A stretch of DNA of 64,000 nucleotides. It comes from Patellaria atrata CBS 101060 (lineage: Eukaryota). The DNA lies in the NCBI GenBank assembly GCA_010093705.1, contig MU006110.1, positions 142,377 through 206,376 of the forward strand, given 5' to 3'. The position numbers and the translations under genes were made by a program. The notes under the pieces are model-generated. The model worked only from the letters and a program-made list of their open reading frames with translations, did no database searches and was not told the DNA's origin. Shown piece after piece: positions 5,967 to 43,814 of the stretch (the first letter of the stretch is position 1; the number at the start of each line of letters is the position of its first letter).

Positions 5967-6884
5967 CTATCCAGTCCACACAGCGGGTCCGGGAATGATG
6001 TACTCGGTGCTGGTCATGGAAGAGGCGGAGTCGATGTTGACGGCGATACCCGGGTCAGAAGCCTTGTAGGCACCTGGGAAGCTGACGAGGTAACTGCCAG
6101 AGGGTTGTGCGGAGCCGGAACCGGTAACGGTGACTTGGGCGCATTCGGGGTAGACTTAAAGAGAAATTTTAGCACTATTTCCACATTTCGATTGTAGATT
6201 TCACGAAGTCTTAAGAGAAACAGAGGTTTTTGGGGAATAGGGAAATGGACAAAGGGGTAAAGGGACTTGGACATACATTGCGGGTTTCCGCCCTGGTGCA
6301 AAGCTAAAAGCTCGTGTCTGACGAGGTACTCGCCCGGTGCCAGAGACGCAGGAACCTTGAAGGTCCACTTGAGGGTATCGACGATCTGGTCGCCGGCCCA
6401 GATGCCCTTGTTGAGAGTTCCGGACTTGAGACCTGCGTGGTCGACCTTGAACCAGACGTTGCCGCTACCGTCCCAGCTGTTGCATGCACCGGGGCATTTG
6501 GCCATGTAGCTGTTGATTCCTCGTCAGTATCTTGACAGACTAGAAGGGTTAAGAAGAGGATATAACGTACATCATAACCGCTGCGGGCCTATGGGTCCAC
6601 TGCGTCCAAGTGGCCGTCATATCCGTACCAGCAGTGATCGTACCGGTAAGACCTGTTCCCTTGGCACCGTTGTTATTGCAGCGGATGTTCACACTGCTGA
6701 GGCCGGAGTTGTAGATGGGGTCGAATGAACCATATTGTCTCTGGATGCTGCTCTGGCCCGAAGCGCTGTTGTACGGCTGCCATCCCTTGTAGCTTTGGCC
6801 GTTCATGGTGTAGGTGCCGACGCCACCGTGGGCACTGACGAGCGACACGATGGACGTGATGGCTGCTGCGGCGGAGAACTTCAT
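5967..6884 (-). CDS. AA9 (GH61) lytic polysaccharide monooxygenase
   Basis: Signal peptide, then His1 (VSA-HGGV). WTHRP; YMAKCP...[14 protein letters not shown]...PQFYPECAQ across an intron; ends IPGPAVWTG*. Two introns at about 6510-6570 and 6156-6276. Confidence 0.93.
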
Positions 6885-25109: not shown

Positions 25110-26149
25110 CTATATCGAAACCCCAAACAAGGGAAGTATGTTGAAGACCAAGCTGACACTCAATCCCAAGACTGCCGCAAACAATTGCAGTCCGTCTGTC
25201 TTTTTACTGCTTTTCCTGGCGTTGTCAATATTATCTTTCGTCTCCCTCCCAATCGCAGCTTTGAAACGATTCTGCTTTTGACTCTCTCGGGCCAGTTTAG
25301 ATTCAGCTTCACTTTTCTCTCTTTCACGCTTTCCTCTAACTACTACGTCTTGATTCCGCTCTGCCTCCGCGATGTACCGGTCTAGTGTAGCTATCTCATC
25401 TTCGGCTTCCATTATTCTTCCATAGATTGAGGGTGCTACTAGACGGCCAGCAGATGTATCTTCAAGTGTTTTACCGTAATCGTTGACTTCCCTCTGGATA
25501 CGAAGAACAATGTCCTTCTTCCCCGCAAGTCCTATAACAATGCCCTGGGCCATTGCAGAGCTACCATCGAAGTTGTATATTTGGCTTCCTCCCTTCTCCA
25601 TCATGCACCAAAACTCTTTCCGAAGCTCTTGATCCCGTTTTAACCCAATCGAAGGGTCTCTCAGTTGATCCCACATCGTCGTTACCAGTACGACATTTCC
25701 GAAAGCTTCTTCTCCGCATATCTTCTGAAACATTTGGAAATAACGTAGAGCACTTCCTTGCATTCTCATATCGGTTATGCGATGGAGATATATCAATCCT
25801 CTCAGAGGGATTCCCAGCTGATATTGTGCAACCAGGAACTGTGTTATTTCGTCGAGAATCTCCGCATCTGATCGCGTCGTATCATCAAATCCGGGCGTAT
25901 CGACAATTGCTATTGACATTTCATCCCCTATCTTCGCCTGAACTATGGCACAGTCCCTGGTTTCTGTTCCAAATAGTCAATCTAAATGATCTTAAGATGT
26001 TGAAGTCTTGAAAGATTACCTGAATATAGATCATCCCCCTCTACGACTGAATCCTGGACTAATCGATTAATGAAATAGCTCTTTCCAACACCCGTGACAC
26101 CCATCACCACTATCATCCCGCTCGGTTCATTACGTGTTTCGGAAACCAT
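25110..26149 (-). CDS. Tail-anchored TRAFAC P-loop GTPase (septin/GIMAP-AIG1-like) with coiled coil
   Basis: G1 VMGVTGVGKS in exon 26149-26020; intron at about 25965-26019; G3 IVDTPGFDDT; IYLHRITD; G4-like VTTMWD; coiled coil; hydrophobic C-terminal LFAAVLGLSVSLVFNILPLFGVSI. Confidence 0.88.
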
Positions 26150-35749: not shown

Positions 35750-38700
35750 CTAGCATTGTCTAAGATACAAACCGATAGGTTCAGGATTGTAGTCTTGGAA
35801 ATACTCAAGCTCGATACCTTCCGACTCGAGCTCGAATCCAATCCTCATGCCGTGTCTGCAAGGATATGTGTCCAAGACATACTCATGGCCTGGTTTGATA
35901 TCGAAGGAGCCGAAGTCCCTCTTCTTAGCGGGCGCGTTGGCGTAGGTGGTATGCTCATCAGCCGGTGCCCATAGGACTGAGGCTCTGATTGAGCCGTGGC
36001 CGTTATACTTGTAGTCACTAGATATACGTTAGGAAGTTATGTTGTATCCCGTGCTTGTAAATTTCTTACCTAGTCTCCATATGACCCTTCTTCGGGAAGA
36101 GGAAAATCAACGAGCAAGTCTTGCCCTTGTATGACTCTGGAATGTCGAAATTGTAGATAGTCGACTTGGTAGCAGAGCAGACACCATTGTATTGGGTTCC
36201 ACACGCCTTGTGCGGTTTGCTCGCATCGATGGGGACGATGAGATGAGGGAATTGGAATGGACCTTCCAAGTCAGCTGGGCAGTCCTTGGGCGCAGGAGGA
36301 TGGGGAGGAAGCAGAGGAAGATTGTGCTTATCCTGGCAGTCCTCGTGATCTGGTGTCTGTTCACACAAGGGTGGAGGCATAGGCTTTGGCTTTACATTAT
36401 GGCACTCGTCATGGTCTGGAAGCTCGTCACAGTTGACTTTTGGCTTACAGTCCTCAACATCTGGGTGCACCTCGCAATCGGTTTCGCAGTCATCCCCTGC
36501 ACACCTCTTTTGGACCTTTCCGACCTTGCCGAACAGGTGATGACCCTCTGGGGGACACCCACACTTGTCCTTTTGCCCTACCCAAAACATGCAGCACACC
36601 TTGACTATCTCTTCTTCTGCTGGAGGAGAGGGACAATCGGGGTGGTGAGGGTGATGATGGCAGTCTAGCTTTGGCGGATGGCATCCATGGTGGTGAGGAT
36701 GGTGTTCGCAGTCAAGCTCTGGCGATGGTTCGGGGCAATCCTCGAGATAAGGGTGATGATGGCAATCTGGGGGGTGAGGTTCACAATGATCCCCAAAACA
36801 TCGCTTTTGGACCTTTCCAACCTTCCCGAACAGATCATGTCCCTCAGGTGGACAGCTACAGTGGTCTTTTTGGCCTACCCAGAAAGCACAACAGACCTTG
36901 ATCACCTCAACGTCTTCATATTCAGGCTCGGAATGACAATCGTGGTGATGAGGATGTTTCTTGCAGTCAGGCTTTGGGGGTGGACATCCATAGTGATATG
37001 GATGCTTCTCGCAGTCGACTGGCTTTGGGGGCGGTGGAGGAGGGCACAGATGGTGATGCGGATGCTCATCACAATTCGGCTTAGGACAACCCTCAAGGTA
37101 TGGATGGTGACGGCAATCCGGAGGATGTGGTTCACAGTGATCCCCCAAACATCTCTTTTGCACCATTCCAACCTTCCCGAATAGATCATGCCCCTTGGGC
37201 GGGCAGCTGCAGTGATCCTTTTGGCCTACCCAGAAGACACAGCACACCTTGACCACCTCAACCTCTTCATATTCCGGTTCCGAATGACACTCAGGGTGAT
37301 GCGGATGGTGGTGGCAATCTGGCATTGGTGGTGGGCACCCATAGTGGTGTGGATATTTCTCGCAATCGACTGGCTTTGGTGGAGGAGGAAGTGGGCATCC
37401 GTGAAGGAAAGGATGTTGATGGCAATCAGGCGGATGAGGTTCGCAGTGGTCTCCTAAGCACCTCTTTTGCACCTGACCCACTTTCCCAAATAAATGGTGA
37501 CCCTTAGAAGGGCATGAACAGTGGTCCTTTTGTCCTTCCCAAGACACACAGCAAATCTTGATCACCTCAACCTCCTCTGGTGGTGATGGTGGATGAGGGC
37601 ACATGTGGTGGTGTGGGTGATTTTCGCAGTCAGGTTCTGGGGGGTGATGATGATAATGATGGCAGTCCTCATGATCTGGCTCTTCCTCGCAGTGAACCGG
37701 CCTTTTTGGTTTACAGTCCTCAAGGTACGGATGGTGGTGACAATCAGGAGGATGAGGCTCGCAATGGTCGCCCAGGCACCTTTTCATAACCTTACCAACC
37801 TTTCCAAATAGGTGATGGCCCTCCGGAGGGCAGCCACAGTGGTCTTTCTGTCCTACCCAGAAAACACAGCACACCTTAACGATCTCTGTCTCTGGAGGAC
37901 AGTGAGGATGGTGCGGATACTTCTCGCAGTCAACCTTCGGAATTGGGGTATAATGATGATGATGATGATGACACTCCTCGTCATCTTCTTCGCACAATGC
38001 CTCTGGCTCTGGCTTATGGTGTCTACATTCCTCGTGATCCGGCTCATCGTCGCAGTGATCTGGCCTCCTCGGCTTGCAGTCCTCCAAATAAGGATGGTGA
38101 TGACAATCAGGCGGATGATGCTCGCAATGATCCCCAAGACACCTTTTCATAACCTTCCCAACCTTTCCAAAGAGATTGTGGCCTTCTGGTGGACAGCTGC
38201 AGTGGTCCTTCTGTCCAACCCAGAACACACAACACACCTTCACAACCTCCTCTTCATGATGACAGTGAGGATGGTGTGGGTGCTCGTGGCAGTTGATTGG
38301 TCTGCACTTCTCGTGATGATGATCAACCTCGCAATCGGGCTCTGGTTCCGGATGATGATGATGCGAATGGCATTCCTCGTCGTGTTCTTTGCAGTGCTCT
38401 GGCTCCGGATGATGATGATGATGGTGTAAATGGCACTCCTCGTCGTCCTCTTCGCAGTGCTCTGGTTCCGGGTGATGGTGGTGCGAGTAGCACTCCTCAT
38501 CGTCCTCTTCACAACGCTGTTTGTGCGCTTCCCTGCGTTTAAGCTCAGATGCTTCCACTGCCGCATACTTCAGCCTGACCTCGACGCATTTCAGCTGTCC
38601 TTTCAGAGGTTCTGTATAGACGTTCCACTCGCCGAAGTCGTTGACCGGGCACGCCCAAAAGCAGTCCTTGCCGTGGTACGTTACGAGATCTCCAGATTCG

Positions 38701-39049
38701 CAGCTGAAGCCAGGGGTTCCTATAAGTCGACCGTCAGTCAAAGAAATAGAAATTCAGCGGCCTGACACTCACCTTTTGCACCAGCATCACATTGTATCTG
38801 GGACGTCTCAGGAGTAACGATGCATCCCCTGCCGTGAGAATCCGTAACGACGCCGTCCTCAACGCAAAATGTTGATACTCCATGACCTCCGCCAATGCGG
38901 ACTTGACCATCATCGAGCTGTCCGAGAGCAGACCATGCTCCGTCTACGGCATAGACGTTGAAGCAGTGTTTTTCTCCGTAGCCACCTCTCTTGATGGCCG
39001 CAGCAGAAGCACCAAGGGCGAAAGCGAAGGGCGTGAACGCTTTCACCAT
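35750..39049 (-). CDS. Secreted/cell-wall protein with PIR-like N-terminal domain, long His/Cys/Pro-rich repeat region and But2 C-terminal domain
   Basis: Signal peptide; LGQLDDGQVRIG...GRGCIVTPETSQIQCD; central repeats; FQFPHLIVPID...STIYNFDIP..TCSLIFLFP and YFQDYNPEPIGLY. Introns at about 38722-38772 and 36019-36070. Confidence 0.88.
36300..38520 (-). repeat. Intragenic tandem repeats: six KVCCxFWVGQKDHCxCPPxGHxLFGKVGxVxKRC units plus many CxxHPxHxxC motifs
   Basis: Visible directly in ORF 36066..38741. Units are about 300-360 bp apart. Confidence 0.9.
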
Positions 39050-41246: not shown

Positions 41247-42378
41247 CTATATATACCCCGGCCTCCAAGAACCAGGTGTACCTGCCGACACCGGACTCTG
41301 ATAACTCTCTCTCATCCCATCCTGCGCTGGACTCGCCCCCACGCCCGGCGCCAAACTCTCTGCCGGTAGTTCCGCTAAGAATTGCTGCTGGGACGCACGG
41401 AATGGTTCTCCCATGGAAGGATGAGAAAGGTGTGAAGGGTCGGGACTGGGATAGTAGGACGAGTGTTGCATTTCGGGGGAGAGGTTTGTTTTTGATGTTT
41501 GAGTTTGGGAGGCGTGGTAGGATGACGGGGACCAGATTGTCTGGTCAGAGTCTACGGTGATGTTAGCATATACGTTTTGTATAAGGATGGGTGGATTTGT
41601 ATGGGGTGGAATTATGCAGAGTGAAATCGTACGGATGAATAGTCAACCGATGTAATTGTATACGAGAAGTTTGTTTGGATGGATAGGGATCTGGTTTACC
41701 TCTAAAGTTTTTGGATGGGGTTATTGTATCTGCTGGCATTTCTGAATATCTTTCACGATTGGGACTTGTGGTTTGCTCTGCCATGGGAGGTGGAATAACC
41801 CCTTCGTGGGATGCTGTATGAGGGACTCGAACGTCTCGCCGCTTTCGTCGGCGGTGGATGTAAAATATCACTAATGCTACTATGATAACGACCACGCCAC
41901 CGACCGCGGCTCCTACGATACCTGCTACGGGAAATCCTCCATCATCATCATCTGAATTTGGCGGAGAAGTGGATGTCGAAGTTGCTGAACTTGTAGAACT
42001 CGCAGTTGTCTCACTCGCCGTACTCGTTGCATTCTGTTCCACCAAAAAGTCCGCCGCAAAAGAGGGATTATTACTCAAGAACGCGGCCGTTAAATCGTCA
42101 TCTGGACACCTCCCTTGCGTACACGGATTGCTATGACAGCACCCCAGAAACGGCGGATCGTTTGAGGCACAGGTATAATAGTCGCCACTCGAGCACTGCT
42201 GATCATGGAACTCGCCAAAGAAATTCCTGTCGAAGCTCGCTGGTCGTAAGTCTGTAGAAGGACATCCGCGATTGCATGGATCGGAAGTGCAGCAGCCGAG
42301 AAAACTGCTACCGTCGGCACAAACGTACCAGTCTCCTCCGGAAGGGCAGGTTGGGGAGAAGGGGAGGTCATTGGCCAT
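41247..42378 (-). CDS. Single-pass membrane protein with duplicated Cys-rich ectodomain (Mid2/Wsc-like layout)
   Basis: Two FLGCCxxxPC units, S/T stalk, TM segment IVGAAVGGVVVIIVALVIFYI followed by HRRRKRR, and a cytoplasmic tail with AELPA. Intron starts at about 41699; 3' structure is approximate. Confidence 0.8.
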
Positions 42379-43814
42379 AGTGGACGGTCAATGGAAGGAG
42401 AGTCAATCAGCGGGATGGATGGGGTATCGACTATCAAAATGGGTGAAGCATAGAGTATCAAAACGAATAGAGGATTAGGAAAACAGTATCATCGACCACG
42501 ATTCGCGAAACTGGAAGGGAAATGGAGGGTCTCGCGTTTATAGGATAACAAATGGGGAATGGAAAATCTGGGAACTGATGATTATGGGCATTCAGAACGC
42601 CTAAAGCTTTTGAAAGTCTTCGAGGTCAACAAGGCAACCCATAGTTACAATTGCTCCGGCTTATTCTTTGTGGGCTTGGTCAGTTCTACCGTTACATTTA
42701 GATGTTCAAGATGGCGGAGAGTTTAATTTCGATTCAACTCAAAGGATGTAGTTAAGATTAACTGCGGATCAGCACCTGCTGTGCCACATCGTGGTCGAGG
42801 GTGTTTAAGATTGAGGCGTGTTTTCTTCCCATCAATAGTTCTACTTGACCGTTTCCCGACTCGCAAACTGGCACAATATTTCCATTTTTACCTTCAGCGT
42901 GGCCTTAAAAATATTATAAGCAAATCAAGCTTTCGAAGTAGAGGACTGTATACCGAGGAGAGTTAGAGTAAAAAGAGAAGACGTGAGATTTGGGTCCAAG
43001 ATAAATTCCGAGGAGTTGGTGGTGGCAGGGAAGTGAATCCGACGCTAACAGGAAGTTTTTTTGGACTTTCTTCAGCTTCACAGCCCAGCTTTTGACCTCG
43101 TATTTCTTCCTGTTCTTACACACTTTTATACTACACCTTCCTGTACAGTACAGAGTGCACTTCTACTAAGAAGATCTTCAAATAATTGAATAGAAAGCGT
43201 GCGAACTTGTAGAGTGTCCCATCAGCGGTATCCCTTTAACTGTACTAAACCTGTAGAGCGCCCGGTGAGGTCCACAGTAGGGCGAAGAGGAAAAGACCGT
43301 ACTCAGATGAAGTTATTAACGAGTAAATCAACTGGTTCTGCGGAGAATTACAACGATGAGGTAACGTCATCACATTAATTATGACTCTAGATCTAGATAT
43401 TTTCTAGATCCATACCTACTCACTTGTGAGAAATATTCACAACAAATATGTTATAGAAGAATCTTCAACCTGTTGAGTTCATCATGGTCCTTGGTACTCT
43501 AACTCGCGATCAAATTCGTACCATGAAGCCCAACCAAATGGCGCACAGCTTTTCGCAGATCAACACAATCCGTCTCAAAAGGTACTTGGCAAGTCGACAA
43601 CACTTTGAAAACTCTACTTCTTGTTTACGACTTCTTGAACCGCAAGAAGTTTTATACATCAAAACCGCACTCTTCCTAAAGTGTACGGTGTTTCTGTTCT
43701 TCAGGATCACGGGTGGACACATCAAGTCCTCAGGCAATCGGGTCTTCAGAAAATTCCTAAACACCTAGAATAAGTGAGAAGGTGGAGTGCGGGGAAGTCT
43801 CAATGAATGTTGAA

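Follow-up and report, generated by a model that had tools for sequence, protein, structure and literature searches.

Six orphan His/Cys-rich repeat units in a PIR1-like/But2 protein of Patellaria atrata, a candidate Kex2-processed polyprotein

Fungal Kex2-processed repeat proteins (KEPs) combine a signal-like N-terminus with at least three similar fragments bounded by KR (PMC6339444, PMC7329392, PMC9769878). In the Le Marquer pipeline, their layout consists of at least four fragments upon cutting at KR or RR, at least three of which are similar (PMC6339444), and the repeats are described as short peptides (PMC9769878). The PIR proteins of yeast and Neurospora, in turn, combine a four-cysteine PIR-type domain with an N-terminal Kex2 site (PMC12359137; bioRxiv 10.1101/2024.07.18.603779), and the PIR repeat itself follows the consensus Q[IV]XDGQ[IVP]Q, of which the three glutamines and the aspartate are crucial for the wall linkage of yeast Pir4 (PMC12359137). 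Here, we describe a gene of Patellaria atrata CBS 101060 that presents features of both groups. It lies in a window of 64,000 nt (positions 142,377 to 206,376 of the forward strand of contig MU006110.1, assembly GCA_010093705.1), on the minus strand, with its ATG at 39049 and its stop codon ending at 35750, and its three exons encode a protein of 1064 aa. In this wood-dwelling fungus, the protein comprises, in order, a signal-like N-terminus, a PIR1-like_C domain, a linker of 772-773 aa (residues 143-914/915) that carries six repeat units, and a But2 domain. The repeat is genuine, under selection and an orphan, and it sits in a scaffold that is known, as is its processing logic: where other members of this secreted wall-type family carry a dispensable spacer, a selected domain has been gained. 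The motifs around the repeated KR dipeptides further suggest, with a probability that we place near even, a polyprotein built on the PIR-like/But2 scaffold, from which Kex2 would free six modules of 99-130 aa, acidic and probably rich in disulfides.

Cutting the protein in silico at every KR or RR yields 12 fragments, six of which share the repeat core, as in the KEP layout (plain KR/RR cutting rather than the published pipeline). Unlike the short peptides of KEPs, the predicted modules of the array are 99-130 aa long and contain 12-14 Cys, and the array is flanked on both sides by folded domains of the family. In architecture, the closest precedent is Hum3 of Ustilago maydis, in which Kex2 repeats precede a C-terminal hydrophobin, a folded surface domain; in the same fungus, the peptides that Kex2 releases from Rep1 remain at the hyphal wall (PMC4617103). 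The repeats of Hum3 and Rep1, however, are amphipathic and 31-55 aa in length (PMC4617103), whereas those of P. atrata are long, acidic and rich in His, Cys and Pro, and no sequence relationship was found. By contrast with the yeast and Neurospora PIR proteins, the P. atrata protein has neither a canonical PIR repeat nor a glycosylphosphatidylinositol (GPI)-like tail, and its tandem repeats are unrelated to theirs. Patellaria atrata (main texts and supplements) and But2 (supplements) are absent from two KEP surveys; But2 is also unmentioned in the available part of a PIR survey (bioRxiv 10.1101/2024.07.18.603779) and appears just as an annotation in secretome lists (PMC5816826). If the repeated KR sites are cut, KEP biology would widen from short peptides to disulfide-rich modules of 100-130 aa located between folded domains, and surveys built on short repeats may overlook such precursors.

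Residues 156-905 consist of 17.3% His, 16.0% Pro, 11.5% Cys and 11.3% Glu, while Ser and Thr together account for 3% of the linker, which contains no N-glycosylation sequon. A first-pass annotation, made from the DNA letters, had reported a His/Cys/Pro/Glu-rich linker of ~700 aa with poly-His runs, many CxxHPxHxxC motifs and six units of the form (M/Q)KR-CLGDHC. The coordinates of the gene and the composition stand, the linker being longer than reported; four runs of at least four His and eight strict CxxHPxHxxC motifs (17 with the looser C-x8-C pattern) agree with the description, as does the KR, kept within V-[MQ]-K-R-C in 6/6 units, whereas CLGDHC is a consensus from which units 3, 5 (CFGDHC) and 6 (CAGDDC) depart. 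Each unit opens with K[VI]CC, at residues 253, 374, 480, 583, 700 and 799. Over 62 aa, the units are 73-90% identical to unit 1, which is beyond chance, with several substitutions relative to the consensus in unit 3, and 67-85% identical as DNA. Each contains a core of 43 aa with six cysteines in the pattern CC-x9-CxC-x17-C-x4-C, and the cores are separated by His runs and by C-x6-C and C-x8-C modules, which are small and vary in number.

The cores bear the marks of age and constraint. Their pooled, uncorrected proportion of synonymous differences (pS) is 0.86, that is, saturated, as opposed to 0.098 for nonsynonymous differences (pN), and the dN/dS ratio is 0.01-0.06 in the 4/15 core pairs that could be corrected. 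Among the 43 columns, 28 are invariant at the protein level, of which 25 vary synonymously; the K and R of the site are written with two and three codons, respectively, without any change of amino acid. Given the saturated pS, the low pN and the codon variation within invariant columns, the repeat is old and under purifying selection, so that recent slippage is excluded and the protein sequence of each copy matters.

No relative of the repeat emerged from the searches, in line with the first-pass annotation, which had recognised no family and had proposed a six-unit profile. This profile, run against 1.84 billion representatives, produced four matches, namely the protein itself and three weak ones, with no credible relative among them. 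The weak matches (an algal low-complexity repeat protein, a PAS histidine kinase and an EsV-1-7 repeat fragment) were rejected as additive repeat noise. A word-indexed search with residues 165-780 of the exon 2 frame retained the protein alone (1/2829 candidates), 0 Pfam or NCBIfam families matched any of the 6/6 units, and a metagenome scan with the core gave 222 pattern matches, of which 0 were confirmed. Among the sequences of the PDB, the best matches (E 0.49 for the unit profile and 0.0067 for the protein) were both rejected, and a likeness of the Cys pattern to cystine-knot spacing was dropped since no profile matched. Two segments compared with the ESM Atlas gave no usable match, a result that carries no weight as absence. 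Within its own genome, the repeat occurs in this gene alone, and residues 156-249, which precede the first core, match nothing but themselves. The literature, as covered here (few subscription papers, and excluding Table S2 of the PIR survey, which might list the protein), includes no paper on the gene or the repeat. The repeat is thus an orphan in the searches run, and its six-cysteine core of 43 aa is a candidate new mini-domain.

The scaffold that carries this repeat is unremarkable; what stands out is the linker. PF22799 is followed by PF09792, both above their curated cut-offs, and the four-cysteine PIR-type domain is recognised through PF22799. The same two domains in the same order characterise secreted proteins of filamentous ascomycetes (P0005-P0007, L021-L100 and L019), which also share the signal-like N-terminus, a propeptide ending in Arg, a degenerate GQL.DGQ.R motif and ~46-57% identity to the P. 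atrata protein in the domains. A metagenome scan with the family alignment recovered 123 relatives, of which the best 80 (L021-L100) were kept; their linker is complete in 53 (39 distinct), partial in 19 and unparsed in 8. Among these best 80, the 39 distinct complete linkers are 25-361 aa long (median 136), contain at most 4.1% His and include KR or RR in 0/39 cases (1/15 among partial linkers of at least 40 aa), and the three database relatives (P0005-P0007) agree with this picture. A low-complexity Ser/Thr/Pro/Ala spacer free of dibasic sites is typical of the family, if not strictly defining, and the P. atrata linker departs from it with 772 aa, 17% His, 11% Cys, 3% Ser+Thr and ten KR/RR. 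Homologue searches with the N-domain (2/215 and 2/162 candidates) were insensitive and may have missed orthologues with other unusual linkers. The genome retains a compact paralog (L019, G000:C13:334600-336200, minus strand), with PIR1-like_C and But2 domains 46-47% identical to those described here and a linker of ~30 aa lacking KR, and because this paralog was kept, the repeat-bearing copy was free to change. Two metagenome relatives (L044 and L045) have linkers with Pro/Glu/His stretches of the E-H-P-E-P-E-H type, resembling the P-E-P-E-H spacers at residues 175-220, and such stretches are a possible starting point of the His-rich expansion.

The case for processing stems from the sequence context of the KR dipeptides. 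In the published Kex2 motif, P1 is Arg, P2 is Lys and P4 is aliphatic (PMC8528282), with a preference for acidic or small residues at P1' and P2' and an acidic residue at P4' (PMC2515848). In the repeat, Val at P4 and Lys-Arg at P2-P1 occur in 6/6 sites, Asp at P4' in 6/6 and Leu or Ala at P2' in 5/6. The whole protein contains eight Kex2-type motifs in register (after residues 21, 155, 285, 406, 512, 615, 732 and 831), of which the first two bracket the N-domain, the second setting it apart from the array. Shuffled sequence gives 0.26 such sites per 750 aa, or ~0.04 per unit. Two other dibasic sites lie inside the array, each followed by Pro, which at P1' blocks Kex2 cleavage, and one KKR lies inside But2 (residues 1007-1009). 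Cuts at the eight sites would give pieces of 21, 134, 130, 121, 106, 103, 117, 99 and 233 aa, close to the modules of ~100-120 aa that the first-pass annotation had anticipated for the array; apart from the Cys-free leader, every predicted piece has an even number of Cys (8, 14, 14, 12, 12, 14, 12 and 14). A single gene in the genome encodes a kexin P-domain, and the subtilase motifs in its frame suggest a Kex2-like enzyme.

Several observations weigh against cleavage and against its proposed significance. The six KRs stem from one ancestral site and count as one event. They occupy just 2 of the 28 invariant columns (43 in total), and any two columns would both be invariant ~0.4 of the time, so that conservation alone cannot decide on cleavage. 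Conservation is also continuous over the KR (0.82 before, 0.87 directly after), and all six conserved blocks are complete across it, as expected of one continuous domain. The P1' residue is Cys in 6/6 units, not one of the acidic or small residues that Kex2 prefers there, and a third of predicted Kex2 substrates were reported to be uncut, including a conserved KR in Pry proteins (PMC2515848). Local pairing accounts for the even Cys counts in an intact chain as much as in a cut one; the predicted modules are far longer than typical KEP peptides (35-53 aa in Rep1); and the repeat is known from one genome. The surroundings of the gene are equally silent, as the 27 other window frames scanned in Pfam (the longer frames) include no metal transporter and correspond to housekeeping or unrelated genes. 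The release by Kex2 that the first-pass annotation had proposed fits the extended motif and stays putative in light of the unbroken conservation, the Cys at P1' and the precedents of uncut KR.

These observations lend weight to a different explanation, less probable in our estimation and nonetheless a serious contender, under which the protein is structural and built like beads on a string. The 43-aa core would form one six-cysteine domain enclosing the KR, which would be buried or suffer a nick at the most, and disulfides would hold the chain together. Cuts would take place at the scaffold sites alone (after residue 21, perhaps 155), and what remains, a long chain rich in His and Cys that terminates in But2, would function at the surface or in the matrix, possibly with cross-links through metal or quinones. 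The six complete blocks spanning the KR and the invariant Cys at P1' are consistent with such a domain, as are the uncut KR of Pry proteins, the structurally protected site of Ccw14 (PMC2515848) and the role of the linker in relatives as merely a spacer between two domains. Conversely, the site matches the extended Kex2 motif on both sides, the dibasic sites that fall off register are followed by Pro, the segment around the KR is Gly/Lys-rich and likely exposed, and unit 6 has drifted after its KR, where the segment would stay on the But2 piece. A structural model does not arbitrate: AlphaFold2, applied to one unit as the first-pass annotation had suggested, reached a predicted local distance difference test score (pLDDT) of 42.6 (35.3 for the full protein), and the disulfide pattern across the KR is unreadable at these values.

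Under the Kex2-processed polyprotein model, a spare copy of a common fungal PIR1-like/But2 secreted protein would have been turned into a precursor, while the compact paralog could keep the ordinary job. The protein would enter the endoplasmic reticulum, where Cys would pair locally (within C-x4-C, C-x6-C and C-x8-C, and CC with CxC), before being cut by Kex2 in the late Golgi. The products would include a PIR-like module (134 aa) and six acidic modules rich in His, Pro and Cys (99-130 aa, 11-16 kDa), all of which terminate with the conserved CC...CxC...GH.LFGKVG.V block; the remaining piece, of 233 aa, would carry But2. Once their Cys are oxidised, the modules would, in a weaker step of the model, use their acidic residues and their 15-32 His each to bind Zn, Cu or Ni, or as points of cross-linking within the extracellular matrix or the wall of the fruit body.

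The predicted modules are acidic (pI 5.7-6.4, net charge -5 to -22) with 15-32 His each. Metallothioneins are small, Cys-rich proteins that bind metal through thiolates; Cys in the secretory pathway should be oxidised, which likely sets the secreted P. atrata protein apart from them and leaves His and Asp/Glu as metal ligands. The Candida albicans zincophore Pra1 (PMC12663325) provides another point of comparison; it and the metallothioneins are secreted or small and rich in Zn/Cu-binding His and/or Cys, as here. No Pfam match to a zincophore (Pra1-like) or metallothionein family was found for the protein or for 6/6 units. Judged by their composition, the modules likely bind Zn, Cu or Ni in vitro, and would then be candidates for extracellular metal buffering or biosorption. 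Metal handling as the physiological role is a tentative proposal that we regard as rather unlikely, and a structural or cross-linking role in the extracellular matrix is about as likely. Zinc-response motifs of the ZafA type number 8 in the window (10.6 expected) and copper-response motifs of the Mac1 type 9 (4.6 expected), with none of either type upstream of the gene and one Mac1-type motif inside its coding region. By analogy with the His-rich hard tissues of invertebrates, one can also envision the conversion of a gene for a wall protein into a protease-punctuated factory for new disulfide-stapled His-rich modules of 11-16 kDa, laid down with the PIR-like and But2 modules and hardening or protecting the surface through metal coordination or His cross-linking; both the small fold and this mode of constructing fungal extracellular material would then be new, a scenario that we consider doubtful.

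Released modules might instead act as defence or competition peptides, antimicrobial or directed against grazers, with His-richness being secondary. Their small size, abundant Cys, lineage specificity and several diverging copies suit such peptides, and each module ends in a Lys/Val/Gly stretch that looks amphipathic, yet the acidity of the modules, selection that is strongly purifying rather than diversifying, and the lack of a match to any Pfam family render this improbable. In particular, the antimicrobial role advanced in the first-pass annotation is unlikely in a cationic form, given fragment pI values of 5.7-6.4.

Neutral slippage expansion, a pseudogene or an assembly artefact would be in keeping with the occurrence in a single genome and with family linkers that vary freely in length (25-361 aa among the best 80 of 123 relatives). 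Against this stand the 895-codon open frame of exon 2, a pN of 0.098 set against a saturated pS of 0.86, synonymous variation in 25/28 invariant columns and units just 67-85% identical as DNA, which are not those of a collapsed or duplicated assembly. The gene model is identical to database protein P0001, labelled as a hypothetical protein of Patellaria atrata in a cluster with one member. Contigs of 2/2 public runs, which share a single sample that is probably DNA and may have been used for this assembly (a check on the assembly and not on expression), cover the gene in one piece with 0 differences, and because of this letter-for-letter agreement the gene is not a simple assembly error. We therefore hold this explanation to be very improbable. 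Least probable, and already largely excluded, is a precursor of dikaritin-type RiPPs (peptides made on ribosomes and modified after translation), small and cyclic, for although the signal-like N-terminus with KR-separated repeats is the layout of their precursors and UstYa/DUF3328 genes are present in the genome, 0 of at least 9 UstYa matches are on the contig of this gene (C22), where such a precursor calls for a DUF3328/UstYa gene within ~15 genes, and fragments of 99-130 aa contrast with the repeats of 8-14 aa in known precursors (PMC7329392).

Table 1. Gene structure, scaffold elements and repeat cores of the P. atrata gene (window positions).
Feature	Position	Strand	Remarks
Exon 1	38773..39049	-	Starts at the ATG; encodes signal-like peptide and propeptide, then degenerate PIR motif and N-terminal half of PIR1-like domain
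Intron 1	38720..38772	-	53 nt, GT-AG; predicted splice model yields protein identical to P0001
Exon 2	36070..38719	-	Remaining PIR1-like domain, entire repeat region, first half of But2
Intron 2	36018..36069	-	52 nt, GT-AG; within But2, flanked by Pfam But2 positions 1-61 and 62-141
Exon 3	35750..36017	-	Second half of But2 and stop codon; without hydrophobic GPI-like tail
Predicted signal peptide, ~residues 1-17 (boundary inferred)	38999..39049	-	Hydropathy 1.89 (10-residue window); layout as in relatives
Short propeptide, residues 18-21	38987..38998	-	Ends A-I-K-R, Kex2-type site
Single degenerate PIR-like motif QLDDGQVR, residues 44-51	38897..38920	-	Third Gln replaced by Arg
PIR1-like_C (PF22799), residues 66-140	38577..38854	-	51.5 bits, cut-off 27.6, E 1.7e-13
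L-K-R-R then E-A, residues 152-157	38526..38543	-	Kex2-type site and Ste13-type dipeptide, directly after N-domain
Acidic His-rich segment, residues 156-249	38250..38531	-	Three acidic modules of C-x6-C type in alternation with His runs, followed by two of C-x8-C type
Core unit 1, residues 250-292	38121..38249	-	KR at 38142-38147
Core unit 2, residues 371-413	37758..37886	-	KR at 37779-37784
Core unit 3, residues 477-519	37440..37568	-	Most diverged before KR; KR at 37461-37466
Core unit 4, residues 580-622	37131..37259	-	KR at 37152-37157
Core unit 5, residues 697-739	36780..36908	-	KR at 36801-36806
Core unit 6, residues 796-838	36483..36611	-	Diverged after KR; KR at 36504-36509
But2 C-terminal domain (PF09792), residues 915-1054	35783..36254	-	Spans intron 2; 165.1 bits, cut-off 24.2

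The first-pass annotation had placed the expanded region between an N-terminal domain and But2, leaving out the PIR1-like identity of the N-domain and the Kex2-type sites after residues 21 and 155 (Table 1). The end of the propeptide has counterparts in the family, as aliphatic-x-x-R occurs in 36/40 N-termini of relatives, a permissive pattern counted without a chance control. At the second of these sites, the dipeptide corresponds to the XA/XP motif of Ste13 (PMC9769878). The single PIR-like motif departs from the canonical repeat by a Leu at position 2 and an Arg for the third Gln, a replacement found in 42/42 PIR-like motifs of relatives. A hydrophobic GPI-like tail was not found at the C-terminus of the 1064-aa protein, and in view of this and of the non-canonical PIR motif, covalent wall anchoring, which in PIR proteins takes the form of an alkali-labile ester link to beta-1,3-glucan, is unproven, as is the label of wall protein used in the first-pass annotation.

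The But2 region adopts a beta-sandwich in the AlphaFold2 model (best structural Z 7.9, root-mean-square deviation 4.6, 109 aligned residues), and several carbohydrate-binding modules appear at Z 6.2-7.1 among unrelated folds in a search with this low-confidence model. The predicted fold is generic, compatible with carbohydrate binding and not diagnostic of it. Elsewhere in the genome, a 587-aa frame (L008:199-1959, G000:C19) fuses a glucanase-like N-terminal domain, which we take to be GH17-like, to But2, and this fusion hints that But2 may work with wall glucan. Three other PIR1-like_C genes are also present in the genome (L014, L015 and L016; G000:C2 and C8): the first with numerous canonical repeats that read Q-I-S-D-G-Q-P-Q, followed up by a GPI-like tail, the second with a Ser/Thr stalk and a GPI-like tail, and the third with three canonical PIR repeats ahead of the Cys domain.

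Within the window, the downstream neighbour is a choline-transporter-like gene (PF04515; 33111-35248, minus strand). A frame at 41566-42387 (minus strand) with weak Pfam matches is arranged like a wall sensor: its N-terminal part is Cys-rich, and it has a Ser/Thr stalk and one transmembrane-like segment. A fragment of an AA9 lytic polysaccharide monooxygenase, a copper enzyme, lies ~29 kb from the gene (6017-6523, minus strand), with no link shown between the two, and a frame with a weak AIG1 match at 25113-25976 is unrelated to the repeat gene.

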